From: a virus
Taxonomy: Duplodnaviria > Heunggongvirae > Uroviricota > Caudoviricetes
IMG/VR virus record: IMGVR_UViG_3300032046_000003
Span: 1 to 64,000 of that record
Direction: 5' to 3' (one strand)
Length of the DNA: 64,000 nt
Program-made: the position numbers and the translations under genes
Part shown: piece by piece, positions 29,284-52,519 of the stretch
Layout of the letters: each line of letters begins with the position of its first letter
Position numbering within the stretch: the first letter of the stretch is position 1
Notes under the pieces: generated by a model
The model's input: only the letters and a program-made list of their open reading frames with translations
The model's database searches: none
Told to the model about the DNA's origin: nothing

Positions 29284-29291
29284 TACTTTTT

Positions 29292-29362: not shown

Positions 29363-29370
29363 TAAAAAAT

Positions 29371-29882: not shown

Positions 29883-29911
29883 TTCAAATCTTCCAATATA
29901 TGCATTATAAT
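29883..29911 (+). promoter_or_regulatory. sigma70-like promoter TTCAAA-17-TATAAT; predicted start at or next to the ATG (leaderless)
   Basis: -10 ends 7 nt before ATG 29918. Confidence 0.5.
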
Positions 29912-29917
29912 ATATAT

Positions 29918-34644: not shown

Positions 34645-35708
34645 CAGTAAAAACTTACAGATCACGTGAATTCAGCGCTTATCAAGATAACAGGGGCATA
34701 GAAAAGTCCAGCGGTATTTCCACGGACGCCAGGGAGCTGAAACTGGGTGCTGATTCTGACAGACCAAAAAATATATTAGAAAGTTTACTGAACGCATATA
34801 GAGGGCAGTCGCAAGGCGCGAACCTGAAAATGAGGGCTTTTGAGATAGCCACTTCGGCCTTTAACGATCCTGGGCTGAGGGACGAACTGTACAAAAAGTG
34901 GGGGACCGCGGACAAAGTTAAAGTTATTGACAGTTTAGCTCAGCTCATATATGATGTGTTCTTTGAAAGTAAACCCGAAGCGCCTGGAGTAGTTGTTCAA
35001 CCTGAGATGGTCATGCCCAAATTGAATATTGATATAACCGTCAGGCAGGAGCCCACCGAGAAGGCCCAAAAGAGGCATATAAGAGTGTCATCCACAGGTA
35101 AACCTTTCAGCGCTGGCAAAGGCGCGAGTAAAATCAAATTCAATTGGACTGAAACAGATGTAATACCAGTTAGAGGACTATCGAACAAAGAAGATAAAAA
35201 AGAACCATTAGTTCACCCAGCAAAAAAACAATCTGGTAATGGACCTCTTCCTAAAAATGCTTTGCAATATAAAGATGTACCATTAGATCGTTTACCTTTT
35301 GATAAATGGTTAGAGAAAATCGACTCCACTCCTGAAACAGGATTGAGAGAATATTTCAAACAACATGGTATGGAATACATAGACACTCCCGGTAATTATC
35401 ACGAAGAGAAAGATCAATATGAAAGTATACAAGAGTTCATGGAACAAGGAATGGGAACAGAGGAATTTAATAAATTGAAAGATGCTTATAATAAGATACG
35501 AGAAAAATCAATTGATGATTTAGATGTAGAAAAAGTATATTCAAAGAAACAAGCCAGATTATTTGGTGCAATTGCCGGTGGAGTAAAAGTTCCTGGAGTT
35601 GATATATCTCCCTCTAAAGCAAGAGACGAATTGAGAGATGTTAAAGTAAGTAAGCTGCCTGAAACATCACATAAGAAAAAATCATTGCCAGTGTTAAAAG
35701 GAAATTAA
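34641..35708 (+). CDS. protein with internal KQHIRVSSTGKPFSAGKG-like module
   Basis: EKAQKRHIRVSSTGKPFSAGKGASK at mid-protein. Confidence 0.5.
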   Translation: MTVKTYRSREFSAYQDNRGIEKSSGISTDARELKLGADSDRPKNILESLLNAYRGQSQGANLKMRAFEIATSAFNDPGLRDELYKKWGTADKVKVIDSLAQLIYDVFFESKPEAPGVVVQPEMVMPKLNIDITVRQEPTEKAQKRHIRVSSTGKPFSAGKGASKIKFNWTETDVIPVRGLSNKEDKKEPLVHPAKKQSGNGPLPKNALQYKDVPLDRLPFDKWLEKIDSTPETGLREYFKQHGMEYIDTPGNYHEEKDQYESIQEFMEQGMGTEEFNKLKDAYNKIREKSIDDLDVEKVYSKKQARLFGAIAGGVKVPGVDISPSKARDELRDVKVSKLPETSHKKKSLPVLKGN

Positions 35709-35978: not shown

Positions 35979-37442
35979 ATGCCTATAGATTTAGAGACTT
36001 TCTTATACGCCGAAGATTATCTTCATATGCCTAAATTATCTGCAGAACAGTTCAGGGTTCTCAGGGAACTGGACGATGATAATCCTGACACCAACAAGAT
36101 ACTAGAGGCTGTTTTGGTATGGGGTAAAGGTGGCGGTAAGGACTGGATTTCTGCTATATTCATATCGCGCAGAGTGTATAAGTTATTATGTAGAGCCAAT
36201 CCTCAAGCTTTTTACGGGCTGCCGCAAGGCGAGCCTATAGACATTTTGAATGTTGCTGTTTCAGCAGAACAAGCAAATTCCGTATTCTTTACGAAATTAA
36301 CCAACATAATAAAACACGCAGGTAAAAAGACATTCATTGAGTTTGGTTTCGATCCTATTAAAGACATCAAGGCCAATAAGATAGTTTTCCCGAAAGAAAT
36401 AAGAGTCTTCTCAGGTCACTCAGAACAAGAGTCAATGGAAGGTAAAAACTTATTTGCCGCAATAATGGACGAAGCGGCTGCTTTCAAAACAGAATCTGAA
36501 CTGAAAGGCAAAGGCCCTAGAGCTAAAAGAAGCGCTAAAGCTCTATATGATTCTTTGTCTTCCTCTATCAGGTCTCGTTTTCCTAAAGTTGGCAAACTAG
36601 TAATAATCTCATATCCTAGGTTTACTAATGACTTCATACTACAAAGATATGATGCCTGTAAAAACAAGCCTGATGCTTTAATTAGTTTTGGAGCTACATG
36701 GGACATTAATCCTCTTGTTAAAAGAGAAGATTTTACTAAAGATTACAGAGACAATCCCGAACAGTCTAAATCAATGTATGAGTGCGTTCCCCCTAAGGCT
36801 AAAGAGCCGTTCATACGAGAGCAAGAGAAAGTAGACTTAATAATAGACAGGACGGTAAGAACGCCTTACGATATGTGGGGGCAATACTTTCCTGAGTTCA
36901 GAGGCAAGCCATTCTCTTATTCAATAGGGATAGATTTATCATTAACGGGCGACTCTACCGGATTCGCTCTATTGCATAAAGAGAAAAGACAGGACAAAGA
37001 CATTGTTGTTATCGACCTGTTAAAGAAATGGACTGCCGAGCCCGGCAGAGAAATAGACTTGGAAGAGATCAAAAGGGAAATTGTATTTTTAAGGTCCAGG
37101 GGGTTCAATATAGCCTCTATATTATTCGATCAATTTCAATCTGCTCACATGATCCAGGAACTCAAGAAACAAGGTTTCAACGTAGACACCCAGTCTATAG
37201 AGAGAAACTTGGACATATGGAATTCGGTCAAGGCCTTGATTTATAACGGTGAACTGAAAATATACGACAGCGAAATTTCTTACGAGCTAATCGAGGAACT
37301 GAAAGGGCTCAGCCTGATAGCCGGCAATAGAGTAGACCACATAGGGGATTTTAGTGCTAAGGATTTATCTGATGCAGTTGTAAGAGCAGTTCACGGATTG
37401 GTTCAAACGCAAGGCAACGATTTTTCATGGAAAGTTATGTGA
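35979..37442 (+). CDS. terL: terminase large subunit
   Basis: Walker A-like WGKGGGKD, Walker B IMDEAAAF, nuclease domain IGIDLSLTGDSTGFALL. Confidence 0.8.
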   Translation: MPIDLETFLYAEDYLHMPKLSAEQFRVLRELDDDNPDTNKILEAVLVWGKGGGKDWISAIFISRRVYKLLCRANPQAFYGLPQGEPIDILNVAVSAEQANSVFFTKLTNIIKHAGKKTFIEFGFDPIKDIKANKIVFPKEIRVFSGHSEQESMEGKNLFAAIMDEAAAFKTESELKGKGPRAKRSAKALYDSLSSSIRSRFPKVGKLVIISYPRFTNDFILQRYDACKNKPDALISFGATWDINPLVKREDFTKDYRDNPEQSKSMYECVPPKAKEPFIREQEKVDLIIDRTVRTPYDMWGQYFPEFRGKPFSYSIGIDLSLTGDSTGFALLHKEKRQDKDIVVIDLLKKWTAEPGREIDLEEIKREIVFLRSRGFNIASILFDQFQSAHMIQELKKQGFNVDTQSIERNLDIWNSVKALIYNGELKIYDSEISYELIEELKGLSLIAGNRVDHIGDFSAKDLSDAVVRAVHGLVQTQGNDFSWKVM

Positions 37443-37451: not shown

Positions 37452-38558
37452 ATGGAGCAAATAAATCTTTTTAAAGTGTTCATGGCCGAATCCGTTATAG
37501 ACGAGTTAAAGCAGGTTTTATACTCTGGATTCATAGGCGAAGGCAAGAAAGTAATTGAATTTGAAAAACAAATATCCGAAAAATTCAATACTCCTTATGC
37601 TTTGGCGGTTAACAGCGGCACATCAGCCTTACATTTAGCGTATCAGATTATAGCCGATTATGATGAAGACTCGGAGTTTATAGTAAGTCCTCAAACATGC
37701 TCAGCCACTCTTACGCCTATTATTGCCAATAGATGCAAGATTGTTTGGGCGGATATTGACCCTATTTCTGGTAATATAGACCCTATGGATATTGAAAGAA
37801 AAATCACTCCGAAGACCAAGGCAATCATAATGGTGCACTGGGGCGGCAATCCTTGCAATATAAAAAAAATAAATGAAATAGCCAAAAAATATAACATTAA
37901 AACAGTGGAAGACGCGGCTCACTCATTAGGTACTAAATATGATGGACAGTATTTGGGTAAGTTCTCTGATTTTACAATGTTTTCTTTACAGGCCATAAAG
38001 CATATTACAAGCGTAGACGGCGGAATATTGTGCTGTAAGGATAAAGATAATTATGACAGAACTAAATTATTGCGTTGGTATGGAATTGATAGGTCAGAAA
38101 ATAGACAGGTCAAAGACTTAAGATGCGAATTGGACCTAAAAGAATGCGGCCACAAATTCCATATGAATGACGTAAACGCGACTATAGGCATAGAGAATTT
38201 AAAGCATTTAGACACAACGGTCGCGGCCCACAAAGCTAACGCTGAATTTTATAATGAAGCATTTAAAGACAAGATTCAATATGCTAAGCCAGAAGAAAAC
38301 GTAGAGTGTTCTTATTGGCTTTACACTATTCATGTTAACAACAGAGATGAGCTGATGGAGAAACTAAAAGAGAACAACATAATGTCTTCTAAGGTTCACG
38401 CCAGAAACGATGTTCACAGCTGCTTTAGCCGATTCAACAAGATACTGCCAAACGTAGATTTATTCAACAAAACTCATCTATGCATTCCGGTTCACTGGGG
38501 AATAACCCACGAACAAAGAGAATATGTGGCAGAACAAGTCTTAAAATATGCGAGATGA
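37452..38558 (+). CDS. DegT/DnrJ/EryC1-family PLP-dependent sugar aminotransferase
   Basis: Fold-type I aminotransferase blocks (..SGTSALHLA.., ..VDGG lysine region). Confidence 0.8.
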   Translation: MEQINLFKVFMAESVIDELKQVLYSGFIGEGKKVIEFEKQISEKFNTPYALAVNSGTSALHLAYQIIADYDEDSEFIVSPQTCSATLTPIIANRCKIVWADIDPISGNIDPMDIERKITPKTKAIIMVHWGGNPCNIKKINEIAKKYNIKTVEDAAHSLGTKYDGQYLGKFSDFTMFSLQAIKHITSVDGGILCCKDKDNYDRTKLLRWYGIDRSENRQVKDLRCELDLKECGHKFHMNDVNATIGIENLKHLDTTVAAHKANAEFYNEAFKDKIQYAKPEENVECSYWLYTIHVNNRDELMEKLKENNIMSSKVHARNDVHSCFSRFNKILPNVDLFNKTHLCIPVHWGITHEQREYVAEQVLKYAR

Positions 38559-39286
38559 GCATGAAGATAAACTATTTTTGTAAAGTATACAACGAAGAAA
38601 GAATCTTACCGTATGTATTTAGGCATTATGACCAATTTGTAGATCACTACTTTATTTGGAATCACGCGTCAACGGATAAGACTAGAGAACTATTAGCTAA
38701 AAATCCAAAAGTTACCATAATCGATCTGTCTGCAGGACTATTTGACGACACAGAAAATATGAATATAAAGAATAGCGGCTGGCAGCAATATGCCAAAGAT
38801 TGCGACTGGGTCATCATTTGCGATTTTGACGAGTTTTTATATCACCCAGATTTGCTCAATATACTAGAAAAATACAAAACTGAAGGAATCACTTTTCCTT
38901 ATATAGACGGTTATCAAATGTTCGCCGAAGAGTTCCCCAAAACAGACAAGCAGATTTATGATGTCGTTAAGACTGGTAAAAAGGCTTCAAACTATTGCAA
39001 ACATATGATATTCAATCCTAGCGTATCTCCTAACTATTATTACGGAGCGCACCAAGCTTTTCCAACGGGGCTTAATGTAAAATACAGTGCCAGCGCCGAA
39101 TTGAAGCTTTTGCATTATAAAATTTTTGGAGAAAGCTTTGTTAATGAAATGATGCAGAGAAATGATAGATTAAGCCCAAAGAACAAGTCTCTAGGACAAG
39201 GGGCATACAGTTTAAATCCCGGTTGTTTGTTTAATCCAAAAACTGAATATGAATTGTTAAAAAAAGAGGCAGTGCAGATAATATGA
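38555..39286 (+). CDS. GT-A glycosyltransferase, GT92/DUF23-like (DxDEF motif)
   Basis: RHYDQFV.. and DWVIICDFDEFLYHP blocks; ATGA overlap with DegT stop. Confidence 0.55.
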   Translation: MSMKINYFCKVYNEERILPYVFRHYDQFVDHYFIWNHASTDKTRELLAKNPKVTIIDLSAGLFDDTENMNIKNSGWQQYAKDCDWVIICDFDEFLYHPDLLNILEKYKTEGITFPYIDGYQMFAEEFPKTDKQIYDVVKTGKKASNYCKHMIFNPSVSPNYYYGAHQAFPTGLNVKYSASAELKLLHYKIFGESFVNEMMQRNDRLSPKNKSLGQGAYSLNPGCLFNPKTEYELLKKEAVQII

Positions 39287-41112
39287 AAATTGTTTCAAAG
39301 ATAAAGTTACTGTTGAATTGGAAACACCCTAAAAAAACCTATTCATTTTTACCCAACCTAGAATACGATCTATCAGAAGATATAGTCAATTATTTGTTAT
39401 GTGCATATAAAGATAAATTTGTAAAGACTATTGAAATAAAACAAAAAAAAGAAGAATCACTTTTTCTTAGAAAAAACTACGTAAAGCCTACGATAAACAA
39501 CAAAGAGATTTTATGGACAGTAGGAATAGTCAACTACAAAAGTCTAGATTTTATAAAGCACCAATTGAAGATTTTGCACAACTTTAATTCTTTGCCGTTT
39601 AAATTGATTATTGTAGATAATTCCATTCCTTCAGAGAAAAAGCAGCTAATGGAAATGTGCAGCGAGTATAACGATGTTACAGTTGTAACAAACAAACCCA
39701 AGCAAAATGAGACCAGCAATCAACATTCTGAGGGCTTAGAGATAATTTTAAGCCTTACAAACACCAAGTACTTATTAGTAAACGACCCAGATTTTTTCTG
39801 GGTTCAAAAAGAATATTTATACACTCTTCAAAAATTGCTAGAAGAGGGATATGTTTGCGTCGGGGCTCCTTTTTACAGAGCAACGTTCACTAAAAATGAC
39901 ACGCCTGCTGTTTGGGGATGCGCTTATCAAACAAGAATTTTAGAAAAAGGCATTTTTGAAACTTTTAAGGGTTGTTCACATGATGATATTCATAGACTGT
40001 TAACAGAAGGCAAAGATACGGCCTGGAGATTAAGAGAAAAATATCTAAACGAGAATCTAAGAACATTTTCATTTGAGGATCATTTAGGCATCACACTTGA
40101 TAATGACTTTTCTGCGAATATAAAACATTTTTCAGACGCCACTGTAAAAGACATTCACGAGTACAGATATAATGGAAAAATAATAGCTTATCATTTATAT
40201 CACGCCTGTCATGACGACCCAGACCCATGGCCGTCTAAATCCAAAAGAAGAAAAACAATAGTGCCTGCAGAATGGCAGGACATAAGAAAGCAGTATTCAA
40301 ATTTTTTTTATAACGTTATTTGTAAAGAAGTAGAGATAAAGCCACTTAGAATACACTTGCATTTTCTTTGCAAAAATGAAGAAGACGTGCTGCCTTTCTT
40401 TTTTAGGCATTATGACCAATTTGTAACGCAATATTTTTGCCACTTCAATATTCACTCTACTGATAAAAGCTTAGAAATATTAAAAAACAAAAAGAGCTTA
40501 AAGATTATAGAATACAATAATAAGCTAATTGACGACAGGCTTTATTTAAACATCAAGAACTACATATGGAAGGAATATTCAACAAGAGATAACTGCGACT
40601 GGGTTATTATATGCGACGCAGATGAATTTCTATACCATCCAAATATATTGAATTTACTAAACAGATATGATAACGCGGGAGTGGATATTCCTAAAATTAG
40701 GGGTTATCAAATGTTCGCCGAAGAGTTCCCGATTGACGATAAACAAAGTCAGATTTATAAATTAGTCAACAAAGGAGTTTATGCTCCAAGCTATAACAAA
40801 TACATTTTGATGAAACCGCATATATTTCCAGAATACGCGTACGGATGTCATTCTCTTTCTCCTTGTTCCATCAAACTAATAAAATTTAGCGATGATTACC
40901 ATATTGATAATACAGAAAAAGCGGAATTAAAATTATTTCATTATGCTGTTTTTGGAGAAAAATTTGTGAAAGACATGATGAACAGAAATAATAAATTGAG
41001 CGAATTAAATAAAGCAATAGGATTAGGTGTTTATTCTTTAGAACCTGGTACGAAATTTAATCCACAAAAGATATATGAAGATGTAAAAAAGAATTGTGCA
41101 GTAGTAGTATAA
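39283..41112 (+). CDS. two-domain glycosyltransferase (N-terminal GT2-like + C-terminal GT92-like paralog)
   Basis: N-term IVNYKS..IIVDNSIP; C-term FFRHYDQFV, DWVIICDADEFLYHP, GYQMFAEEFP. Confidence 0.6.
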   Translation: MKIVSKIKLLLNWKHPKKTYSFLPNLEYDLSEDIVNYLLCAYKDKFVKTIEIKQKKEESLFLRKNYVKPTINNKEILWTVGIVNYKSLDFIKHQLKILHNFNSLPFKLIIVDNSIPSEKKQLMEMCSEYNDVTVVTNKPKQNETSNQHSEGLEIILSLTNTKYLLVNDPDFFWVQKEYLYTLQKLLEEGYVCVGAPFYRATFTKNDTPAVWGCAYQTRILEKGIFETFKGCSHDDIHRLLTEGKDTAWRLREKYLNENLRTFSFEDHLGITLDNDFSANIKHFSDATVKDIHEYRYNGKIIAYHLYHACHDDPDPWPSKSKRRKTIVPAEWQDIRKQYSNFFYNVICKEVEIKPLRIHLHFLCKNEEDVLPFFFRHYDQFVTQYFCHFNIHSTDKSLEILKNKKSLKIIEYNNKLIDDRLYLNIKNYIWKEYSTRDNCDWVIICDADEFLYHPNILNLLNRYDNAGVDIPKIRGYQMFAEEFPIDDKQSQIYKLVNKGVYAPSYNKYILMKPHIFPEYAYGCHSLSPCSIKLIKFSDDYHIDNTEKAELKLFHYAVFGEKFVKDMMNRNNKLSELNKAIGLGVYSLEPGTKFNPQKIYEDVKKNCAVVV

Positions 41113-41870
41113 TGACATTAGAAGAAAAAATAAAAAATAAAGCTTTACAGTTTAAATTAGAAAGAAACGATGAAGTAGATCATTGGTGGAATTATAGAAA
41201 TCATTTTTTGAATAATATTCAAACAAAAGATCTAACAAATTTTTTAAATTGGGAAGAATGCATAAATGCATTTGTAGTTACATACGAATCAACAATGAAA
41301 GTTGAATTTGATTCATTAGATGAAAATTATTGGAAAGAAATTATAAAAGAATCGAATACGGGAAATCCAGTATTAGCTTCTTTTGCTCCATATACGAGTC
41401 CGAACATGATTCATTATGCATATCATGTAGATGTTTTTCAAAAAAAATATGATAAAAAAATAATAGATTATAACACTATTATTGAATTTGGTGGTGGATA
41501 TGGAGGAATGTGTCGTTTAATTAGAAAGATGGGATTCAAAGGCAAATATATTCTTTATGATTTGCCTGAATTAAATTTATTACAAGAGTATTATTTAATA
41601 AAAGAAAATTGTATGGAAAATACTGTTATTACAAATAATTTTTCTATTTTTAATGATAAATATGATTTATTAATTGCAACATGGAGTTTAAGTGAAATAC
41701 CCCTTTCGATAAGAGAAAAAGTAGCACAGAGCGCCAAAAATTTTATAATGGCCTCTCAATTTGAATTTGCTGGAATAGATAATATAAAATACTTTAATTC
41801 ATTGAAACTAGATGTGTTTAATATTGAGCATTTGCTTGGTAATTTTTACATTATGGGAGTAAATAAATGA
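41112..41870 (+). CDS. class I SAM-dependent methyltransferase (MTLEEK N-terminus)
   Basis: EFGGGYGGM glycine-rich motif; ATG 41112 overlaps previous stop. Confidence 0.5.
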   Translation: MTLEEKIKNKALQFKLERNDEVDHWWNYRNHFLNNIQTKDLTNFLNWEECINAFVVTYESTMKVEFDSLDENYWKEIIKESNTGNPVLASFAPYTSPNMIHYAYHVDVFQKKYDKKIIDYNTIIEFGGGYGGMCRLIRKMGFKGKYILYDLPELNLLQEYYLIKENCMENTVITNNFSIFNDKYDLLIATWSLSEIPLSIREKVAQSAKNFIMASQFEFAGIDNIKYFNSLKLDVFNIEHLLGNFYIMGVNK

Positions 41871-42649
41871 GAGTGCACGTGCATTCGGTTATTAGAAACG
41901 AGGAAGTAATGCTTCCATATTTTTTAAGACACTATGAAACATTCTGCGAAAAGATTTTTTTAAGAATACAACCATCTACAGACAATACTTTAAATATCGC
42001 TAAAGCTCATCCAAAAGTAATTATTATTGACTATAAAACCGAGTTTTCAGGCACTGAAGACATGTATCACATTATGGACATGATGGAAGTAAGAAATAAT
42101 GATTGGAAGAAATATTCAACTTCAAAGAATTGTGATTGGATTATAAATGCTGATTGCGATGAGTTTTTGTATCATCCAAACATTCTTGATATATTAAAAA
42201 TATATACAGACAAAGGAATTACTTTTCCTAAAATAAATGGATTCCAAATGTATTCAGAAAAACCGCCAACTACAAATAAACAAATATATGATGAAATTAA
42301 AACAGGCTTTCCTTTATATGAATATTGTAAAAGAGCCATAATTCATCCTGATATTGATCCAAATTATTCTCCAGGAAGTCATGATTGCACCCCTAAAGGA
42401 AACATCGTTGAAAGTAGTGTAGCTGATTTAAAGTTTTTGCATTATTCAAAACAAATTTTTGGTAAAGATGCTTTAATAAATTTTTGGAAGTTCCGCTTAA
42501 GACATAGCGGAAAATTTAAAGAAGAGAATATGAGCAGCGACTTGCTTGATGGGGTTTATTATCTATATGAATTAACTATGAAGAGTTTTATGAGGTACGC
42601 AAATACAGGTAAGGTTGATTATAAACAAAAGTTTTTGGAAGTTATATAG
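41867..42649 (+). CDS. GT92/DUF23-like glycosyltransferase paralog
   Basis: MLPYFLRHYETF, DWIINADCDEFLYHP. Confidence 0.55.
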   Translation: MRVHVHSVIRNEEVMLPYFLRHYETFCEKIFLRIQPSTDNTLNIAKAHPKVIIIDYKTEFSGTEDMYHIMDMMEVRNNDWKKYSTSKNCDWIINADCDEFLYHPNILDILKIYTDKGITFPKINGFQMYSEKPPTTNKQIYDEIKTGFPLYEYCKRAIIHPDIDPNYSPGSHDCTPKGNIVESSVADLKFLHYSKQIFGKDALINFWKFRLRHSGKFKEENMSSDLLDGVYYLYELTMKSFMRYANTGKVDYKQKFLEVI

Positions 42650-43401
42650 TGATCGTAAGTAAAGTTTATGGTGGGATCGGCAATCAACTGTTTATGTACG
42701 CCTTCGGACTCTCACAAGCAAGAAGATTAAATACTGAACTTAAATTAGATATAGATATTTTGTTATACAATCCTTATCATTATACTCCATATAATTTTGA
42801 ATTAGTAAATTTCACTGGAGTTGTAGAACAACTAGCAAGCAATGTTAAAGGATTAATTTCAGTAGAAGAAAGCAAGATGGGGACTAATGAAATTAAAAAT
42901 AACTCTATCTTAGACGGATATTGGCAAGATGAGAATCTTTTTGATAATATAAAAGCTGAGTTAAGAAATAAGTTGATATTTAAACAGAAGCCTATATTAA
43001 ATATAAACTCAAATTCAGTCTCTATACACGCCAGAAGAGGCGACTATTTAAATGGTGATTATTTCGTAGACTTGGCTAAAACAGATTATTATAAGAAAGC
43101 GATTGAATACGTTTTAAGTAAAGCTGAAAATCCAACATTTTATATCTTTTCTAATGATATTAATTGGGCTAAAGAATATTTTAGTTTTATAAAACAAAAC
43201 AAAGTATTTTTAAACAATAATACTATAGAAGATTTGTATTTGATGAGTTTATGTAAACATAACATAACAGCAAATAGTACTTATAGTTGGTGGGCAGCTT
43301 GGCTTAACAGTAATCCTGATAAAATTGTTATACAGCCGCATAAGTGGTATGAAACAAAGAATATAGAAAAATTAAAGCAAAGAGGAAGTGTTATAATATG
43401 A
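42649..43401 (+). CDS. GT11 alpha-1,2-fucosyltransferase
   Basis: N-terminal GGIGNQLFMYAFG motif; HARRGDY block. Confidence 0.75.
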   Translation: MIVSKVYGGIGNQLFMYAFGLSQARRLNTELKLDIDILLYNPYHYTPYNFELVNFTGVVEQLASNVKGLISVEESKMGTNEIKNNSILDGYWQDENLFDNIKAELRNKLIFKQKPILNINSNSVSIHARRGDYLNGDYFVDLAKTDYYKKAIEYVLSKAENPTFYIFSNDINWAKEYFSFIKQNKVFLNNNTIEDLYLMSLCKHNITANSTYSWWAAWLNSNPDKIVIQPHKWYETKNIEKLKQRGSVII

Positions 43402-44084
43402 AAAAAAATGCTGCTTTAAAAGTCGTCATTTGTAAAAAATGTAACATAACTTTTCAGGTAAAAGATACAAAGAGAAATATTAACAGACAATTTTGTTCAT
43501 CATTTTGTGCTAAATCTTCAAATGGTAAATTAAATAAGGGTAGAAAGCACTCAAATAGAGTAACTCCGCTTATTACAATAATATGCTTACAATGTAAAAA
43601 TAATTTTGAAGTTAAATATAAACAAAGAAATAGAAAATTTTGTTGTAGAAATTGTTCAGATAAGTTTTATTCTGGTGATAAAAATCCTTCTAAAAGACCT
43701 GAAGTAAGAGAGAAGATTGGTAAAAGAGTGTCAGAAACGCATTGGGATTCATCAGGAAAAAATAATCCTATGTTTAATAAAGGTTATAAATTAAGGGGAA
43801 ACAAAAATGGTGCATGGAAAGGCGGAATAAGTTTTGGAGAATATGGTGAAAATTTTTCAAAAGAATTAAAAACACAAATTAGAAAAAGAGATAATTTTGT
43901 TTGTAAAATATGTGGTAAAAATGGATTCATTATCCATCACATTGACTATGATAAGAAAAATAATGAAGAAAATAATTTGATTAATTTATGTAGATCTTGC
44001 CACGCTAAAACAGGATTTAATAGAAAATATTGGGTAAATTATTTAAAAGGAAAAGAATTATGTCAAAGTCAAAAACTTGTTTAA
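43398..44084 (+). CDS. HNH homing endonuclease with zinc fingers, inserted in glycan island
   Basis: CKKCN..CSSFC, CLQCKN..CCRNC; RDNFVCKICGKNGFIIHHIDYDKKNNEENNLINLCRSCH. Confidence 0.65.
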   Translation: MKKNAALKVVICKKCNITFQVKDTKRNINRQFCSSFCAKSSNGKLNKGRKHSNRVTPLITIICLQCKNNFEVKYKQRNRKFCCRNCSDKFYSGDKNPSKRPEVREKIGKRVSETHWDSSGKNNPMFNKGYKLRGNKNGAWKGGISFGEYGENFSKELKTQIRKRDNFVCKICGKNGFIIHHIDYDKKNNEENNLINLCRSCHAKTGFNRKYWVNYLKGKELCQSQKLV

Positions 44085-45070
44085 TAACCGGGGTGACAGG
44101 CCAAGATGGAAGTTATCTTACTGAATTACTTCTTGACAAAGGATATGAAGTCTGGGGAGTGAAAAGAAGATCAAGCTCTTTTAACACCGCCAGAATAAAT
44201 CATATTTTTGATAAAATACAATTATTATACGGCGATTTAACCGATTCAAGCATAGTTTCTATTATTCAAGACGTAATGCCTGATGAGATTTACAATCTAG
44301 CGGCTCAAAGTCACGTTAAGGTCAGTTTTGATATTCCTGAATATACAGTGAACTCTATAGCTCTTGGAACCTTAAGAATTTTAGAGACTATTAGGTCTAT
44401 TAAAGACAAACAAATAAAAATGTACCAGGCTTCAAGCAGTGAAATGTTCGGCTCAAGTCTTCCGCCCCAAAACGAAAATACTCTTTTCAATCCACAGAGT
44501 CCGTATGCCTGTGCAAAAGTCTTTTCATATAACCTTACAAGAAACTACAGGAAAGCTTATAACGTGTTTGTTTCTAACGGTATTTTATTTAATCATGAAA
44601 GTCCAAGAAGAGGAGAGACTTTTGTTACCAAAAAAATAACAAGAGGGTTGGCAAGAGTCGCAGCGGGATTAGAAGATAAAATAACTTTAGGAAACTTGGA
44701 TGCCAAAAGAGATTGGGGGCATTCTAAAGATTACTGCGAGGCGATGTATTTAATGTTGCAGCAAGATACGCCAGATGATTTCGTTGTAGCTACTGGTGAA
44801 AGTCATTCAGTTAGAGAGTTTTTAATAAAGTGTCTAGAGTGGATAGGCACAGATTACGAGTTTGTAGGAACCGGACTGCAGGAGAAAGTGGTAGACAAAA
44901 AGACCGGACAGGTAATCGTAGATATAGACGAGAAATTTTTTAGGCCGTCTGAGGTTAATTATTTATGCGGTGATTCAAGCAAAGCGAGAAAATTGTTAGG
45001 CTGGAATCCAAAAGTAACTTTTGACGAATTGGTCAGCTCAATGATGGAAGAAGACTTTAAAAATGTTTGA
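44060..45070 (+). CDS. gmd: GDP-mannose 4,6-dehydratase
   Basis: LITGVTGQDGSYL Rossmann motif; SDR YxxxK region; overall Gmd-like. Confidence 0.85.
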   Translation: MSKSKTCLITGVTGQDGSYLTELLLDKGYEVWGVKRRSSSFNTARINHIFDKIQLLYGDLTDSSIVSIIQDVMPDEIYNLAAQSHVKVSFDIPEYTVNSIALGTLRILETIRSIKDKQIKMYQASSSEMFGSSLPPQNENTLFNPQSPYACAKVFSYNLTRNYRKAYNVFVSNGILFNHESPRRGETFVTKKITRGLARVAAGLEDKITLGNLDAKRDWGHSKDYCEAMYLMLQQDTPDDFVVATGESHSVREFLIKCLEWIGTDYEFVGTGLQEKVVDKKTGQVIVDIDEKFFRPSEVNYLCGDSSKARKLLGWNPKVTFDELVSSMMEEDFKNV

Positions 45071-45989
45071 ACAGACTAAAAAAACGCTCATTACGGGCGC
45101 TCACGGAATGGTGGGGAACTGCCTAACCGAAAAGCTAAAAGAGTTCGGGTACAATGATTTGCTAACTCCAACAAGACATGATTTAGATTTAACCGATTCA
45201 AAGCAAGTAGATAATTACATATATGAAACTAGACCGAAATACGTTTTTCATCTGGCAGCGGTTGTCGGAGGCATTCAATTTAACATTGACAATCCTGTTA
45301 AAATGCTAAAAGATAACTTAAAAATAAATATAAACGTGTTTGAATCCTGTAATAAATACAAGATTGAAAAAATGTTATATTTGGGTTCATCTTGCACATA
45401 TCCCGCCGAATGCAAACAACCTATGAAGGAAGAATACTTGCTGACAGGCAAATTAGAACCCACTAATGAGGGATATGCCTTGGCAAAGATTATAGGTTTA
45501 AAATTGGCAGAATATTATAAAAAACAAAACGGTTTGAATGTTGTATGCTTAATACCCCCCAATTTATATCACGAGAATAAAATAGCAGATTCAAAATCTC
45601 ATGTTCTTGAAGCTTTAGTAAAAAAAATATGTGAAGCAAAGATCAACAGTTTTTCAAACGTAATTGTATGGGGAGATGGAGAATCACGCAGAGAATTAAT
45701 GCACGCAGATGATATAGCAGATGCAATGTTATATTTCATAGATAAGAATCCCGGTTTAATAAACGTTGGAACTGGTTTAGACTGCTCAATAAAAGAATTA
45801 ACGCAAATGATCGCCGAAGAGACTGAATACGCCGGTGAGATTACCTGGGATAAAACGAAGCCAAACGGAATGCGCAAGAAGCTAATGAATGTAGACAAAA
45901 TGAAGAGTTTTGGATTCAAACCAAAAATTAGTATTCGCGAGGGTATTAAAAGAAGCATTAAAAAATATATGGAGTTGAGCAAAGTATGA
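45063..45989 (+). CDS. fcl: GDP-L-fucose synthase (GDP-4-keto-6-deoxymannose 3,5-epimerase/4-reductase)
   Basis: LITGAHGMVG; immediately downstream of gmd. Confidence 0.8.
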   Translation: MFEQTKKTLITGAHGMVGNCLTEKLKEFGYNDLLTPTRHDLDLTDSKQVDNYIYETRPKYVFHLAAVVGGIQFNIDNPVKMLKDNLKININVFESCNKYKIEKMLYLGSSCTYPAECKQPMKEEYLLTGKLEPTNEGYALAKIIGLKLAEYYKKQNGLNVVCLIPPNLYHENKIADSKSHVLEALVKKICEAKINSFSNVIVWGDGESRRELMHADDIADAMLYFIDKNPGLINVGTGLDCSIKELTQMIAEETEYAGEITWDKTKPNGMRKKLMNVDKMKSFGFKPKISIREGIKRSIKKYMELSKV

Positions 45990-47152
45990 TACCATTAATG
46001 AAAAATGCTTTTAGCAATGAAGTAGACACCTGCCAAAAACTTTCGCAGTTTATTGCATCTGTCCCCAAATTATCTATGGGTGATAAATGCGAACAATTTG
46101 AGCAAGAATTCGCCAAGTATCAAGAAAGAAAATATTGTATATTAGTTAACAGCGGTGGAAGCGCCAATCTTCTTTTAATACAAACGCTAAAGAATATGGG
46201 CAAAATAAAGAAACACGCAAAAGTTGGATTTTCTTCTTTAACCTGGTCTACAAACGTGATGCCTATAATACAACAGGGATTAATTCCAATTCCCATAGAC
46301 TGCTCAATAAAAACCTTGAATGTGATGTCGGATGAATTAGAAAAGACAATAAAAAATCATCATATAGACGTGTTCTTTTCTACGAATGTTCTAGGCTTTA
46401 TGGGTGATTTATATGCGATTAAGAGGATATGCGAAGAAAACAATGTATTATATATTGAAGATAACTGCGAAGCATTAGGTTCGGAATCTAATGCAATTAA
46501 AGCCGGCAATTTTGGCTTGGCCTCTACATTCAGCTTTTTCGTAGCGCACCACCAAAGCTCTATAGAAGGTGGTATAATTGCTACTGACGATGAAGAGCTG
46601 GCCATGAATTTAACATTAAGCAGAGCTAATGGGTGGGATCGTAATTTGCCGGCTGATAAGCAAGAATTGCTTAGAAAAAACAATAACATCAAATCTGAAT
46701 TTCACTCAAAATATATATTTTATGATTTGGGCTTCAATTTTCGTCCTACAGAAATTACAGGCTTTCTCGGATTAAATCAATTAGTATATTTAAAGTCTAA
46801 CTTAAAAATACGTGAAAATAATTATAAAGAGATAGATGCCGTTATTAAAAACAACGACGAACTGGCGTCTATTAATACAAATTATTACGATTTTATTCCT
46901 GCATTCTCTACTCCAATTGTTGCTAAAACTAAAGAATTAAGAGACAAGTACTTTGAGCGATTTAAAGATAACGTAGAAATAAGGCCTATTATTGCGGGTA
47001 ATATAACCAATCAGCCATTTTGGAATAAATATGTCAATGCCAATTACGATTTGCCTGGCACAGATTTTATTGATCAAAATGGGTTTTACTTCACTAACGA
47101 CCCGGCGCTTAAGCGAAAAGAAATAGATTTAATAAAAGATTTATTGAGGTAA
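45986..47152 (+). CDS. DegT-like PLP-dependent aminotransferase (second copy)
   Basis: ..VNSGGSANLL..; DegT-like length and block order. Confidence 0.65.
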   Translation: MIPLMKNAFSNEVDTCQKLSQFIASVPKLSMGDKCEQFEQEFAKYQERKYCILVNSGGSANLLLIQTLKNMGKIKKHAKVGFSSLTWSTNVMPIIQQGLIPIPIDCSIKTLNVMSDELEKTIKNHHIDVFFSTNVLGFMGDLYAIKRICEENNVLYIEDNCEALGSESNAIKAGNFGLASTFSFFVAHHQSSIEGGIIATDDEELAMNLTLSRANGWDRNLPADKQELLRKNNNIKSEFHSKYIFYDLGFNFRPTEITGFLGLNQLVYLKSNLKIRENNYKEIDAVIKNNDELASINTNYYDFIPAFSTPIVAKTKELRDKYFERFKDNVEIRPIIAGNITNQPFWNKYVNANYDLPGTDFIDQNGFYFTNDPALKRKEIDLIKDLLR

Positions 47153-47160
47153 AGCTGGCA

Positions 47161-48000
47161 ATGGCACCACTGTGGACTATTGGAACGGTTAATTATAAAA
47201 CAGAATCCTATTTGCCTTGGAAGCTCAAAATGATGTATGAAAACGAAGACAGCTCCAAGTTTGAATATGTAATTGTAGACAACTCCCCGGTACACAATGA
47301 ACAATTCTTTAGTTTCTTAAAGCAAAAATATCCTCTGATAAAAGTTATTCCATTCGTTCCAAAAGACGTTAACAGAACTTCAGGAGAACATGGCGAAGGA
47401 TTAAACGTAATATTAGACGAAGCGAGAAAAAACGGTTCTACATATTTAATGGTATACGACCCAGACTTCTTTTGGGTACAAAAATATCTATTAGATTATT
47501 TCGAAAGAGCAATCAAGATTGAAAATTACGTTGCGATAGGCGCTCCGTATACTATTCATATAGGACACGGTAATCCTTTATTTCCTGTAGCATTTGGGTG
47601 TGTTTATCCTGTGAAAGCTTTGGACGGGCTAGATTTTTCAACCTCTAAAGACCCACATGAATTGCTGATTGGTGGTAAGGATGTCGGCTGGAAAATAAGA
47701 GTCAATTTATCTGACAAAAAGTTTTTAACATTTATTCAATCAGATGTTCCAGCTAATGAAAGAATGCCAGGACAATATAGCTTCGAATGTATTCTTAGAC
47801 AATATTTTTTATACGGAAAAAGAATAGCATATCATTTACATAGGGGCTCGTTTGATGATGGTTTGGCAAAATTTCAAGCAGAAAATTGGCGTTCGGATAG
47901 AAATAAAGATTTACACGAACCTCCAACAAATTGGATTGCATTAAGAGAGGCCTATTGCCAAAAATATTATGAGGAGTTAACCAAAAGTGCAAGATTTTAA
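47161..48000 (+). CDS. GT2-like glycosyltransferase
   Basis: WTIGTVNYK..YVIVDNSP; paralog of N-domain of 39283 ORF. Confidence 0.55.
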   Translation: MAPLWTIGTVNYKTESYLPWKLKMMYENEDSSKFEYVIVDNSPVHNEQFFSFLKQKYPLIKVIPFVPKDVNRTSGEHGEGLNVILDEARKNGSTYLMVYDPDFFWVQKYLLDYFERAIKIENYVAIGAPYTIHIGHGNPLFPVAFGCVYPVKALDGLDFSTSKDPHELLIGGKDVGWKIRVNLSDKKFLTFIQSDVPANERMPGQYSFECILRQYFLYGKRIAYHLHRGSFDDGLAKFQAENWRSDRNKDLHEPPTNWIALREAYCQKYYEELTKSARF

Positions 48001-48505
48001 AATTAGATTAATTGAAAGAGAAGACTTAGATTTTATAAGAGAAATTAGAAGTAACCCGGAAACTACAAAATATCTTGGTACATTTGAATTATTAAGCAAA
48101 GAAAAACAAGAAAAATGGTTTGAAGGTTTGTTGAATGACAATAGCAGAATGTATTTTATATTCGAGCTTAATAAAAAAAGAATAGGCTACCTTAGAATAA
48201 CAGCTATTGATTATATAAATCGTTCAATGTGCGTCGGGGGAGATATACACAAGAAGTTTAGAGGCAAGGGCTACAGCAAGAAAATGTTTGACTTGATATT
48301 CGATCTTGGATTTTATAAAATGAATTTTAATAAGATGTGGCTTTATGTGCTTGAATCAAACGCAAGAGCCCGACACATTTATAAAAAACTCGGATTCAAA
48401 GAAAATGGAATATCCCGCGAAGCTGTATATAAAGATGGTAAGTATTTGGACTATATCTATATGGATATTCTTTGTAAGGAAATGCAAATAGAAAAGGAGA
48501 GATAA
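47987..48505 (+). CDS. GNAT family N-acetyltransferase
   Basis: GNAT-like motif A region (..VGGDIHKKFRGKGYSKKM..); GTG start. Confidence 0.6.
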   Translation: MQDFKIRLIEREDLDFIREIRSNPETTKYLGTFELLSKEKQEKWFEGLLNDNSRMYFIFELNKKRIGYLRITAIDYINRSMCVGGDIHKKFRGKGYSKKMFDLIFDLGFYKMNFNKMWLYVLESNARARHIYKKLGFKENGISREAVYKDGKYLDYIYMDILCKEMQIEKER

Positions 48506-48507
48506 AA

Positions 48508-48759
48508 ATGGAAGAACAAAAGATAGAAAAGAAAGAGGTAAAGATTGAGTCTAAAGAGGACGCAATAAAAATCCTGGAGAATCTGCACATTACTATATAT
48601 TCAAGAATGAAGGGCAAAGGATTGGGACTTATAGAAAAAATAATGGGAGAAAGTGACGAGGCATTAGAGGCCAACAAGACGCTATATACTTCTTATGTAA
48701 GCTCGGTGGCTAACGACGTGTCTAAGACCATAAAGAAAGCTCTCGAGTTCTTAAAATAG
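48508..48759 (+). CDS. hypothetical protein
   Basis: ORF after SD GGAGAGATAAAA. Confidence 0.4.
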   Translation: MEEQKIEKKEVKIESKEDAIKILENLHITIYSRMKGKGLGLIEKIMGESDEALEANKTLYTSYVSSVANDVSKTIKKALEFLK

Positions 48760-48760
48760 C

Positions 48761-49147
48761 ATGCCGCTAAATAGATTCAATAATTTTGATAATGCCGGAG
48801 AACACAAGCTCTCAGAACTTTTTGATATACAAAAAAGAGACGGAGAAGGTCCATCTCAGTATAGACAAAGATTAAGAGGAGTCGCAGACCATTACCAAGC
48901 GACATACGAGGTGAAAGCAATGCCAATGATCGAGCAAATTCAAGACGTAGAATACGAGGTTACCGGGCACGATACCCATTTGTCGGAATATATTAGGAAA
49001 AGGGGCATAACTTTAAAGTCGGTTACGATAGGCACGAGAAGACCTGCCGAAAAGGTTTTAACCAGTCAATTGGCTAAAGAGAATAAGCCTCGAATGTTTA
49101 TAGACGCTTTCGGGAACATATGGGAGGCTAGAAAAAAGTTAGTTTAA
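48761..49147 (+). CDS. hypothetical protein
   Basis: ORF. Confidence 0.4.
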   Translation: MPLNRFNNFDNAGEHKLSELFDIQKRDGEGPSQYRQRLRGVADHYQATYEVKAMPMIEQIQDVEYEVTGHDTHLSEYIRKRGITLKSVTIGTRRPAEKVLTSQLAKENKPRMFIDAFGNIWEARKKLV

Positions 49148-49171: not shown

Positions 49172-49205
49172 AGTAATATAAGCAAAGTAAAGGAAGGTGG
49201 ATAAA

Positions 49206-49520
49206 ATGAACAAAGGCGTAAAAGAGTTGAAGTCGGAGTTGAAAAAATATTTTCCTGAACATAAATTCAGTTTGAAATATGATAAATATGCCGGCGGCTC
49301 AAATATTGCTGTTTTTGTAGATCCCCCTTTTATGTATAATAATGGAGAAAGTGATGATAAAAAAATAGATAGAGTAGAAGCGATATGTAAGCAATATCAA
49401 GCGTATAAAGATACTAATGCTGAAGACGATTCTATAATTTATGCTACTGAAAATGAGCGTCCTAAAAAATGTGCAACTTATGTTACTTTTCATAATTTCA
49501 CTAAGAGTGTATGTATATGA
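49206..49520 (+). CDS. hypothetical protein
   Basis: ATG 49206 after AAGGAAGGTGG. Confidence 0.4.
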   Translation: MNKGVKELKSELKKYFPEHKFSLKYDKYAGGSNIAVFVDPPFMYNNGESDDKKIDRVEAICKQYQAYKDTNAEDDSIIYATENERPKKCATYVTFHNFTKSVCI

Positions 49521-49708
49521 TAAATTGCAGTAAAAAGAAAAAGTTAAGTGGCGGATTATTTTGCATGAAAAGACTAGAAAGAACAATCGAGGAAGATTGC
49601 GCTAAATGTGAATTAGCCGATGGCGGAAAATATAAAGAAAAGAAAGCTCATAGGCGAAGAAAGATTGGTAGAGAATACTCCCTAGGTGGAAAAGTTATAA
49701 AAGTATAA
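49511..49708 (+). CDS. small basic protein
   Basis: ORF. Confidence 0.3.
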   Translation: MYMINCSKKKKLSGGLFCMKRLERTIEEDCAKCELADGGKYKEKKAHRRRKIGREYSLGGKVIKV

Positions 49709-49723
49709 AGGAGTTGAAGTAAA

Positions 49724-50314
49724 GTGGCTATAAGAGACGGATCGAATTTAATGAATAGAAGCTGGAACTGCAGGAATTGTAGTAGAGAACCAAACTGGGG
49801 AAAAAGAAATTGTAAAAAATGTGCTAACTATTATACTTCAGAATTTAAAGACGCATCTAAAATAAGAGCAATAAAAGATCGAAGAGAAAAACGAGAAGCT
49901 AGAATAAATTCACCTAAAGAGCTTATAGATGCGTATAATTATATAAGAGATGCTTTAAATTTACAAGGTTATCTGCCTGTTGCTGAATCGATAACATTTA
50001 GGTGGAATAGCAAAAGAGCAACCACGGGATTAGGAACATGTTGGAAAGATAAGAAGCTTATTGCGGTAACGTGGAAATACAGAGATTTTGCAGATAGAAT
50101 GGAAACATACAATAGACAGAATTTACTTGAGACAATGTTGCACGAGGCGCTTCATTTAAGAATGCCTCATCACAAGAAATCATTTAAGAGAAAAGAGCAA
50201 GAACTAATAATCAAATTGAGAAAAATAACCGGGCATACGGGACATATCGAATTCAAAACAGAAAACAATGAAGTACTAGAACAACTAGAACAAATCGTAC
50301 AAGGAGCAAACTAA
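49724..50314 (+). CDS. zinc-ribbon + HExxH metallopeptidase-like protein
   Basis: CRNCSREPNWGKRNCKKC; MLHEALHLRMPHH; GTG start after AAGGAGTTGAAGTAAA (same start context as ORF 245). Confidence 0.5.
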   Translation: MAIRDGSNLMNRSWNCRNCSREPNWGKRNCKKCANYYTSEFKDASKIRAIKDRREKREARINSPKELIDAYNYIRDALNLQGYLPVAESITFRWNSKRATTGLGTCWKDKKLIAVTWKYRDFADRMETYNRQNLLETMLHEALHLRMPHHKKSFKRKEQELIIKLRKITGHTGHIEFKTENNEVLEQLEQIVQGAN

Positions 50315-50315
50315 A

Positions 50316-51314: not shown

Positions 51315-51317
51315 CAG

Positions 51318-51346
51318 TTTAAATCTTGCAATAAGTGCATTATAAT
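51318..51346 (+). promoter_or_regulatory. sigma70-like promoter TTTAAA-17-TATAAT (CAGTTTAAATCT family)
   Basis: Conserved extended motif. Confidence 0.5.
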
Positions 51347-51387
51347 TAATATAGATTATAATGTTGACCCAAAAGGAGAGAATAAAA

Positions 51388-52518: not shown

Positions 52519-52519
52519 G

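Follow-up and report, generated by a model that had tools for sequence, protein, structure and literature searches.

Phage-borne islands of lipopolysaccharide (LPS) genes, the so-called "LPS islands", are common, and to our knowledge their targets are almost never known. Chlorovirus PBCV-1 encodes a GDP-mannose 4,6-dehydratase (GMD) and a fucose-synthase homolog, with soluble multi-domain transferases. Mimivirus makes viosamine with a sugar aminotransferase, an N-acetyltransferase and methylation. The enzymes of both viruses act in the cytoplasm on capsid or fibril proteins. In mycobacteriophages Corndog (gp35–38) and Che8 (gp107–110), a methyltransferase and soluble glycosyltransferases likewise form small co-oriented sets, and the glycosylation genes of Corndog sit inside the head module. 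T4-like cyanophages ACG-2014f (gp223–235), S-SCSM2R and P-SSM2 carry "LPS / cell-wall modification" clusters, the function of which is predicted as well (PMC12801897). The established route from GDP-mannose to GDP-L-colitose consists of GMD, ColD and ColC (PMC8987622). Here we describe a phage locus with the same three-enzyme logic as the colitose genes of E. coli O55/O111 (gmd, colD/wbdK, colC/wbdJ and the GT11 gene wbgN): a glycan cassette at positions 37452–48505 of a 64-kb stretch of the virus record IMGVR_UViG_3300032046_000003. This stretch, hereafter the window, is numbered from its first letter and makes up about 36% of a genome of about 178 kb.

The cassette consists of 12 open reading frames (ORFs), all on the + strand, with intergene gaps of −14 to +9 nucleotides (nt). 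It starts 9 nt past the stop of the large terminase gene and ends 2 nt before a conserved gene of 83 amino acids (aa). An earlier note on this DNA had described contiguous, co-oriented glycan genes here, and domain searches bore this out: nearly all the enzyme families that it named are backed by Pfam or NCBIfam. It had also proposed the phage-directed synthesis of a fucosylated, aminated, methylated and acetylated glycan. It had left two options, glycosylation of the virion or modification of the host surface, between which our results do not decide. The part of this proposal that stood is a self-contained glycan-building set in true phage DNA; its fucose is better reread as colitose. We interpret the locus as a self-contained, operon-like glycan cassette. 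The most likely acceptor is one or several virion proteins of the phage itself, a reading to which we give somewhat less than an even chance.

Enzymes of the cassette

Family calls were made with Pfam and NCBIfam, and the thresholds are the gathering or equivalog cut-offs. The chemistry of the cassette is read from three adjacent genes:

44060–45070, + strand: GMD (TIGR01472 equivalog, 502 bits against a cut-off of 415; PF16363, E 1e-133)
45063–45989, + strand: Fcl/ColC-family 3,5-epimerase/4-reductase, 308 aa; a predicted GDP-L-colitose synthase that may also make GDP-L-fucose
45986–47152, + strand: predicted ColD-type GDP-4-keto-6-deoxymannose 3-dehydratase, dependent on pyridoxamine phosphate, 388 aa (PF01041/DegT fold, E 2e-48)

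The best solved relative of the ColD-like protein is ColD/WbdK of E. coli O55 (2gms), with 175 bits over the full length. Among the other solved structures, the CDP-sugar dehydratase E1 reached 118 bits, and the rest, true aminotransferases included, gave 85 bits or less. His188 of the ColD-like protein, in the motif VAHH, occupies the column of ColD His188 and of the Lys in the motif QAIKH of the 37452–38558 protein, the other DegT protein of the cassette. Thus, the Lys that binds pyridoxal phosphate is present in the 37452–38558 protein and absent from the 45986–47152 protein. In an alignment of seven sequences, the ColD-like protein and its phage homologs have His-His, and the first DegT protein has Lys-His. 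What chiefly sets nucleotide-sugar 3-dehydratases apart from sugar aminotransferases is the exchange of the catalytic Lys for His (PMC8987622). Unlike E1 and SpnQ, ColD lacks a [2Fe-2S] cysteine motif (PMC8987622). The ColD-like protein has no Cys after residue 161 and no four-Cys [2Fe-2S] motif of the E1/SpnQ type, and a Pfam search of the island proteins revealed no gene for a partner reductase. Judged by its active-site residue, the 45986–47152 product is a predicted ColD-type 3-dehydratase, not an aminotransferase. Two DegT-type aminotransferases had been named at this locus; both proteins do have the DegT fold, and only the Lys-type one keeps the name of aminotransferase.

The ORF of the GMD gene opens at 44030 with TTG, and its first ATG is at 44060. 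Its product is 65% identical to the GMD of contig L019, 58% to gp223 of cyanophage ACG-2014f and 53% to its counterpart in the O-antigen cluster of E. coli O55. The Fcl-like protein matches Epimerase and GDP_Man_Dehyd at the family level; against the Fcl equivalog NF047922 it gave 322 bits, under the cut-off of 500. Its identity is 43% to ColC of E. coli O55 and 38% to E. coli Fcl, two proteins that share 39% between themselves. The Fcl-like gene lies immediately upstream of the ColD-like gene in the window, in contigs L017, L019, L022, L034 and L005 and in the bacterial metagenome-assembled genome (MAG) L021. This adjacency is kept in every cassette-bearing contig with the region in view, and also in the huge phage LR756502. 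The MAG is deltaproteobacterial and encodes the best named homolog of the Fcl-like protein.

We read the trio as a colitose pathway because GMD, ColD and ColC make up the established route (PMC8987622). With the second DegT protein as a 3-dehydratase, the gmd and fcl genes that had been taken for a complete GDP-L-fucose pathway are therefore better read as part of a three-enzyme GDP-L-colitose pathway; of that pair GMD was confirmed, and the Fcl-like enzyme scored under its equivalog cut-off and adjoins the ColD-like gene. It is probable from the sequences that the chemistry of the cassette is of the colitose type, and GDP-L-fucose may be a side product of the same reductase. In this scheme, GMD would convert host GDP-mannose to GDP-4-keto-6-deoxymannose, and the ColD-type enzyme, through its His188 active site, would remove the 3-hydroxyl. 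The adjacent reductase-epimerase of the Fcl/ColC family would then complete GDP-L-colitose (3,6-dideoxy-L-galactose), maybe with some GDP-L-fucose.

The earlier chemistry would require both DegT proteins to be aminotransferases that serve two different amino sugars, and GMD and Fcl to yield GDP-L-fucose only. We consider this improbable. His188 replaces the Schiff-base Lys, as in ColD, in 84 of the 84 viral homologs examined, and ColD and E1 show no catalytic transamination (PMC8987622). The Fcl equivalog score and the Fcl-like/ColD-like adjacency, which is kept across unrelated genomes, also speak against fucose alone. What speaks for it is that both DegT proteins match PF01041, that GT11 is by default a fucosyltransferase family, and that the Fcl-like protein shares its 38% with E. 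coli Fcl, its homologs being labelled GDP-L-fucose synthase by automated sources. Two further points weigh against the colitose assignment: the ACG-2014f counterpart of the Fcl-like gene is nearer to E. coli Fcl (49%) than to ColC (38%), and the window protein's identities of 43% versus 38% do not settle its orthology to ColC.

The other enzymes of the cassette are as follows:

37452–38558, + strand: nucleotide-sugar aminotransferase, DegT family, Lys-type (PF01041, E 5e-83; catalytic Lys in QAIKH)
38561–39286, + strand: GT-A glycosyltransferase, PF13704 copy 1 (PF13704, E 1e-15, and weak GT92; longest ORF from 38480)
39283–41112, + strand: two-domain glycosyltransferase, 609 aa (N-terminal GT2, E 1e-7; C-terminal PF13704 copy 2, E 9e-15)
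41112–41870, + strand: probable sugar methyltransferase dependent on S-adenosylmethionine (SAM) (SAM motif I EFGGGYGG and YDLPE; ORF also opens at 41094)
41867–42649, + strand: GT-A glycosyltransferase, PF13704 copy 3 (PF13704, E 1.5e-12; 53% identical ortholog in L034)
42649–43401, + strand: GT11 glycosyltransferase of the alpha-1,2-fucosyl/colitosyltransferase family (PF01531, 99.9 bits against 23.9)
47161–48000, + strand: GT2-like glycosyltransferase, 279 aa (paralog of the N-terminal domain of the 609-aa protein)
47987–48505, + strand: GNAT N-acetyltransferase (Acetyltransf_3, E 4.5e-17)

The three PF13704 copies have RHYDQF and DxDEFLYHP blocks in common, and copy 3 keeps the DxDEF and His columns in the alignment. 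The 241-aa product of copy 1 (P0121), as called in the public contig, gave an AlphaFold2 (AF2) model with a GT-A fold and a predicted local distance difference test (pLDDT) score of 97. Its best solved folds are the peptide S-glycosyltransferases SunS/ThuS (TMq 0.52–0.57). The sole PDB sequence match of the PF13704 family profile is GmaR (E 6e-5, 26 bits), which we take to be the flagellin O-GlcNAc transferase of Listeria. Orthologs of the 609-aa enzyme have 603–616 aa and 43–53% identity in L017 and L019, and are split over two hits in L022 and L034. The 279-aa protein gave no hit in a Pfam search; it is 33% identical over 287 aa to residues ~77–348 of the 609-aa protein. Its orthologs (51–63% identical) are always beside the GNAT gene in L017, L019, L022 and L034, and a gene pair of matching position and size is present in L109. 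Four GT92/GT2-like glycosyltransferases, three of them with the shared blocks, had been expected here; PF13704 was found in those three, and the 279-aa protein joins them by its identity to the GT2 domain.

The SAM methyltransferase of the earlier note has the named motifs, and its hidden Markov model (HMM) matches are below threshold: 21 bits against 27 for Methyltransf_23 and 34 against 44 for the NanM-type sugar O-methyltransferase TIGR04371. Three of the four homologs of this protein do match Methyltransf_23. A 61% identical ortholog is encoded in L019, there as in the window just downstream of the large glycosyltransferase gene; in L017 and L022, a Methyltransf_24 gene lies just upstream of that gene instead. 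From these features, the 41112–41870 product is a probable SAM-dependent sugar methyltransferase. An alignment of the GT11 enzyme with WbgN of E. coli O55 gave 32% identity over 278 columns and shows the motifs GGxGNQ(L/M)F and (I/A)RRGDY; the orthologs of the enzyme in L017, L019, L022 and L034 are 58–63% identical. The O55 protein carries the RefSeq label fucosyltransferase, and we take it to be the colitosyltransferase WbgN. The earlier call of an alpha-1,2-fucosyltransferase was right as to the family, and judging by the likeness to WbgN the enzyme may be a colitosyltransferase. PDB sequence searches gave nothing useful for the 609-aa transferase, the GT11 enzyme or the methyltransferase-like protein.

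The best solved relatives of the Lys-type DegT protein are the sugar aminotransferases 4zwv/4xau/CalS13 (244 bits), and its orthologs in L017 and L022 are 65–66% identical. The GNAT assignment was upheld by Acetyltransf_3. The protein gave 85.5 bits against the PseH equivalog, the cut-off of which is 93.1, and 71 bits against SpeG; its best solved relatives are diamine acetyltransferases of the SpeG type (77 bits). It thus fits polyamine acetyltransferases as well as PseH, and this counts against an amino-sugar substrate. If the two enzymes are paired, they would together yield an N-acetylated amino sugar. The pair does not correspond to the perosamine synthase and N-acetyltransferase of E. 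coli O157, a candidate that we rejected: the DegT protein is 28% identical to O157 Per, and the O157 acetyltransferase is annotated as NeuD-type, presumably a fold other than GNAT. Six soluble transferase domains (three PF13704, two GT2-like and one GT11) and the probable methyltransferase would assemble and tailor the oligosaccharide, to which colitose or fucose would be added by the GT11 enzyme.

The cassette in related phages

The genes that bound or interrupt the cassette, and one glycosyltransferase gene outside it, are the following:

33505–34644, + strand: GT-B glycosyltransferase, upstream of the terminase gene (Glycos_transf_1, E 7e-12)
35979–37442, + strand: large terminase subunit, left boundary (PHROG terminase large subunit, E 6e-19; 60–71% identical in relatives)
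43398–44084, + strand: HNH homing endonuclease between the GT11 and GMD genes (PF01844, 24.4 bits against a cut-off of 21.4)
48508–49147, + strand: two conserved small genes of 83 and 128 aa, right boundary (they follow the terminase gene closely in relatives)

The cassette clearly belongs to the phage, and it is conserved in several related genomes. The window has a terminase gene, a portal gene, 17 tRNA genes and many homing endonuclease genes. No phage of the reference collection has a terminase closer than ~33% identity, and a search for near-identical DNA found no match to the island among 50,697 phage records. JGI and ENA assemblies, made independently, both contain this sequence; the contig from ENA (ERZ27247683 k141_4014911) has 178,210 bp, of which the window is roughly 28–92 kb. 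A promoter and terminator scan of 33–52 kb gave counts not above those of shuffled sequence, and it is therefore uninformative on transcription units.

Relatives were found through homologs of the Fcl-like protein: L017/L108 (ENA, 175.8 kb), L022 (JGI, 22.8 kb), L034 (IMG/VR) and L019 (Logan). In all of them the core order is the large two-domain glycosyltransferase, methyltransferase, GT11, (GMD), Fcl-like, ColD-like, a 28x-aa glycosyltransferase and GNAT, with amino-acid identities to the window of 43–66%. L109 (19.3 kb; its contig name suggests a Hainich groundwater sample) starts within the cassette, the last two genes of which occupy the same place there. The island is therefore not unique to the window and recurs in at least five other phage contigs. 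Before the cassette, L019 carries at 63–4921 genes for a GFO/IDH/MocA oxidoreductase, a GHMP kinase, a nucleotidyltransferase, a SIS isomerase, a HAD phosphatase and a transaldolase, plausibly a GDP-heptose pathway fed from sedoheptulose-7-phosphate.

This recurrence bears on whether the island could be host DNA, brought in by chimeric assembly or recent capture and without a role in the phage. Such an origin would fit the slightly lower GC content of the island (0.327 versus 0.359 in the rest of the window) and the practice of pipelines for auxiliary metabolic genes (AMGs), which routinely drop such islands as suspected contamination; one large AMG survey explicitly discards contigs bearing "lipopolysaccharide islands" (PMC11360552). 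We regard it as extremely improbable. The junctions are identical in the independent assemblies, and the five other contigs have phage genes on the flanks of the cassette. The cassette also carries insertions of phage-type homing endonucleases, the families of which occur elsewhere in the genome. The phage homologs of the Fcl-like protein resemble one another (54–65% identity) more than any named bacterial protein (at most ~52%).

The position of the cassette differs between the window and its relatives. In L017/L108, L022, L034 and L109, the cassette lies upstream of the (M23 peptidase, Cpn10 and) Volactin genes. Volactin is followed by topoisomerase IB, GT-B and terminase in L108, L022 and L109, and L034 ends within Volactin. 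Wherever the terminase gene of a relative is in view, the cassette ends 5–8 kb before it, whereas in the window the cassette comes immediately after it. The upstream placement in four relatives means that the terminase-adjacent position is not conserved, which tells against a virion acceptor. Both sites lack the cassette in the closest relative, L010/L107, the terminase of which is 71% identical and the contigs of which reach 180 kb; its 152-kb IMG/VR contig was not among the ColD-like hits described below. As an argument about function, the placement with morphogenesis genes is weakened by these data. The description "between terminase and portal" is itself only loosely true, since the terminase gene is 9 nt away and the portal gene (59772–61454) lies 11 kb beyond the island end, with small ORFs and three endonuclease genes in between.

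Homologs of the 83-aa and 128-aa genes come after the terminase gene and one or two small ORFs in L002, L010/L107, L011, L015 and L108, and L002, L011 and L015 join the terminase region directly to them. The window has a 171-aa gene directly ahead of Volactin (21779–22294), and in L107 (11510–12037) and L108 (11715–12284) its homolog directly follows the terminase gene. This suggests that the cassette and the 171-aa gene have exchanged the two positions. By its gene order and flanks, the cassette behaves as a movable module within this phage group. The separate GT-B gene noted earlier at 33505 was found as described. Its orthologs are 54–61% identical in the cassette-bearing L022 and L108 and in the cassette-lacking L107; L002 has a partial 59% match, and L109 holds a positional equivalent. 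By this distribution, the GT-B gene is a backbone gene outside the mobile cassette. A 355-aa ORF (34641–35708) overlaps its stop by 4 nt; it has no family match and no homolog in the relatives, and a single-sequence AF2 prediction reached a pLDDT of only 38.

The insertion of an HNH homing endonuclease gene between the GT11 and GMD genes, also claimed earlier, was confirmed by the PF01844 hit and by L019, where the two genes overlap directly. The protein has an HNH domain, and its gene is free-standing and interrupts an otherwise contiguous pair. It has the lowest GC content at third codon positions in the island (0.14). In L017 and L019, endonuclease genes occupy other junctions of the cassette, which differ from one contig to the next, and belong to the families found at 16476 and 57090 of the window. 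The load of free-standing endonuclease genes in the window is heavy (14491–15240, 16476–17129, 43398–44084, 55584–56309, 57090–57761 and 58174–58863). The 16476/57090 family splits the terminase gene of relative L002 (L002 1185–2548), and the near-identical terminase variant P0242 carries an intein. Volactin (actin family, E 5e-76; 22614–24749) is interrupted by an intein with HNH_3 and NUMOD3 domains, and its homologs in L017, L022, L034, L107 and L109 are uninterrupted, with ~335 aa. The HK97-type major capsid gene (L105 14610–17103, ~66.5–69.0 kb in window coordinates) is split by an endonuclease-bearing intervening sequence. In relatives L010 and L015 the capsid gene is interrupted at other positions, and its exons are 80–90% identical between phages.

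An alignment-based scan of IMG/VR showed how far the ColD-like gene is distributed among viruses; a single-protein scan with the ColD-like protein had found nothing. The scan gave 79 loci with a ColD-like gene. The His is kept in 79 of 79, a fraction biased upward by scan patterns that were drawn from ColD-type sequences. GMD lies within 3 kb in 58 of these loci, an Fcl-like gene within 3 kb in 20, and both in 13. In the cultured Synechococcus phage ACG-2014f, gp223–226 are, in a row, GMD, Fcl-like, His-type ColD-like and GT11-like, and they are annotated as "epimerase", "epimerase", "aminotransferase" and "glycosyltransferase". A literature search found no report tying colitose or a GDP-sugar 3-dehydratase to a phage or virus. 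The cassette can be read at the chemical level, and it points to phages that make colitose, a rare bacterial antigen sugar. Beyond this locus, "aminotransferase" genes beside GMD look like 3-dehydratases in 58 of 79 viral contigs, as sampled with a ColD-biased pattern, and in a cultured cyanophage. Recognizing His-type ColD-like genes beside GMD in phages may be of wider use in annotation.

Acceptor of the glycan

A virion-protein acceptor is suggested because the enzymes appear to be cytoplasmic, genes for priming, flipping or polymerization on a lipid carrier are lacking, and the cassette is packed without gaps in the terminase-to-portal run. No island protein has a hydrophobic segment. By Pfam, the island encodes no priming transferase, Wzx flippase, Wzy polymerase or exporter, so it does not have the make-up of a Wzx/Wzy-type cluster. 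It provides its own donors and at least six transferase domains, which suffices to build a glycan rather than to modify one. The nearest solved relatives of the PF13704 family, GmaR by sequence profile and SunS/ThuS by fold, glycosylate polypeptides in the cytoplasm. All the soluble virus-encoded glycan machineries with known targets that we know of (mycobacteriophages, chloroviruses, mimiviruses) act on virion proteins. Glycosylation of the capsid and tail tube has been reported for mycobacteriophages in work cited in PMC12363180. By this mechanism, which has precedents in mycobacteriophages, chloroviruses and mimiviruses, the virion proteins would receive their glycan in the cytoplasm and be assembled afterwards.

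Several observations weigh against a virion acceptor. The similarities to GmaR and SunS/ThuS are weak (26 bits; TM ~0.55). Our acceptor search found no acceptor protein: the capsid protein, encoded downstream of the window (L105), has no cassette-linked Ser/Thr tail, loop or extension, the major capsid protein is 80–90% identical in relatives with and without the cassette, and no gene of the terminase–portal interval co-varies with the cassette. In BLASTP of the island proteins against Corndog gp36–38 and Che8 gp110, nothing was found below E 0.01. In four relatives, the cassette has M23 peptidase, Cpn10, Volactin and topoisomerase IB genes as its neighbours. Colitose and GT11 enzymes are classically components of O-antigen synthesis, and the closest bacterial context, in L021, is a polysaccharide cluster of the Wzx type. 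The block at 49197–53071 is specific to the window, with no homolog in the cassette-bearing L108 or in any relative examined, and the variable regions of the relatives contain no glycan genes.

The same enzymes could serve the host envelope. An altered, colitose-capped unit would be built by the soluble phage transferases on undecaprenyl-linked intermediates of the host, on the inner side of the membrane, and exported by the flippase and ligase of the host, and the surface would change during infection, for example to block superinfection or to keep progeny off debris. We hold this to be somewhat less likely than a virion acceptor, and a serious alternative. Enzyme families of this kind are typical of O-antigen clusters such as that of E. 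coli O55, and the nearest named bacterial homolog of the Fcl-like gene sits in a Wzx-type cluster. O-antigen glycosyltransferases are likewise soluble or peripheral, and the missing membrane segments are therefore compatible with an envelope acceptor. In four relatives, the Volactin, topoisomerase IB and chaperonin genes come after the cassette, and cyanophage clusters of this kind are usually read as host-surface modification (PMC12801897). An envelope acceptor is opposed by the absence from the island of a priming transferase, flippase, polymerase, ligase or Gtr-type membrane protein. The number of transferase domains, six or seven, implies that a whole glycan is built, not that one is modified. 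The terminase–portal packing points to probably late expression, when a surface change would bring little benefit.

It is also very improbable that the glycosyltransferases hypermodify the phage DNA at hydroxymethylated bases as a protection against restriction. All the enzymes are cytoplasmic, and phage DNA is known to be glycosylated with diverse sugars (Pyle et al. 2024, as cited in PMC12619734). Against this, the 64-kb window, about 36% of the genome, contains no gene for a hydroxymethylase, a thymidylate-synthase-like protein or another base-modification enzyme, and six transferase domains with methylation, amination and acetylation far exceed the needs of any known DNA modification. We know of no DNA glycosyltransferase in the GT11 or PF13704/GT2 families.

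Returning to the virion-protein acceptor, its fullest form is that these phages of ~175–180 kb, one of them apparently from groundwater, coat their virions with an O-antigen-like oligosaccharide, colitose-capped, methylated and N-acetylated, made wholly by phage enzymes in the host cytoplasm. As a whole we hold this to be possible and rather unlikely. If true, a 3,6-dideoxyhexose would for the first time be ascribed to a virus, and the virions would mimic a bacterial surface glycan. In that case, the His-type "aminotransferases" that lie beside GMD in cultured cyanophages and in dozens of viral contigs would be colitose genes under a wrong annotation, and would play the same role. A glycan on the virions would extend phage self-glycosylation beyond actinobacteriophages.

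Other genes of the window and comparison with known systems

Several other genes of this phage were recorded. Shortly upstream of the terminase gene lie a eukaryotic-type topoisomerase IB gene (29900–31096), conserved in the relatives, and a gene for a five-segment Rce1-like membrane protein of the CAAX protease family (32707–33348). The 17 tRNA genes form a cluster at 16144–29363, which includes an unusual tRNA-Cys with the anticodon ACA (26908–26981). Directly after the portal/MuF-like head genes, from ~62781 to beyond 64000 (L105 10848–12284), lies the gene of a full-length sigma-70-family factor of 478 aa with regions 2, 3 and 4; next comes a 656-aa S78 protease to which a long low-complexity region is fused. 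The window-specific and otherwise unrelated proteins of 50316–51314 and 52520–53071 share the motif (I/V)RVSS(A/T)GKPFSAGKGA in the N-terminal region. The early half of the window (2570–3499, 12502–12954 and 18757–19637) has genes for SPFH/Band 7, Hsp20, a cREC-type receiver domain and a transglutaminase-like protease.

Among the described systems, the giant viruses differ from the window phage in that they infect eukaryotes. The homology of their transferases to those of the cassette is at the fold level only (GT2/GT92 hits). We know of no 3-dehydratase in the PBCV-1 or mimivirus machinery. The mycobacteriophage cassettes make no nucleotide sugars of their own, and the cassette described here is three times larger. 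They are tied by experiment to capsid and tail-tube glycosylation, according to work cited in PMC12363180.

The bacterial counterpart is close in layout. In E. coli O55:H7, colC (307 aa) is followed by colD (388 aa) with a 4-nt overlap, and in the window genes of 308 aa and 388 aa follow each other with a 4-nt overlap. The O55 ColD has 388 aa and His188, like the ColD-like protein, and O55 WbgN is 32% identical to the GT11 enzyme. The identities to the E. coli O55/O111 proteins are only 30–43% (53% for GMD), and the cassette is borne by a phage. Unlike the E. coli clusters, it has no wzx, wzy, manB/manC or priming transferase gene. The PF13704/GT2 transferases, the methyltransferase, the aminotransferase and the GNAT enzyme are in the cassette and not in the O55 cluster.

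The cyanophage ACG-2014f has the counterparts in similar order: GMD (58%), Fcl-like (40%), His-type ColD-like (29%) and GT11-like (30%), then transferases and a methyltransferase. The window phage belongs to a different lineage, with a terminase at most ~33% identical to that of any reference phage, and its other accessory transferases differ. The cassette is a further instance of virus-encoded glycan biosynthesis clusters, which are already known as a kind, and the cultured carrier ACG-2014f makes both the production of GDP-colitose and the location of the glycan, on the virion or on the host, directly testable.

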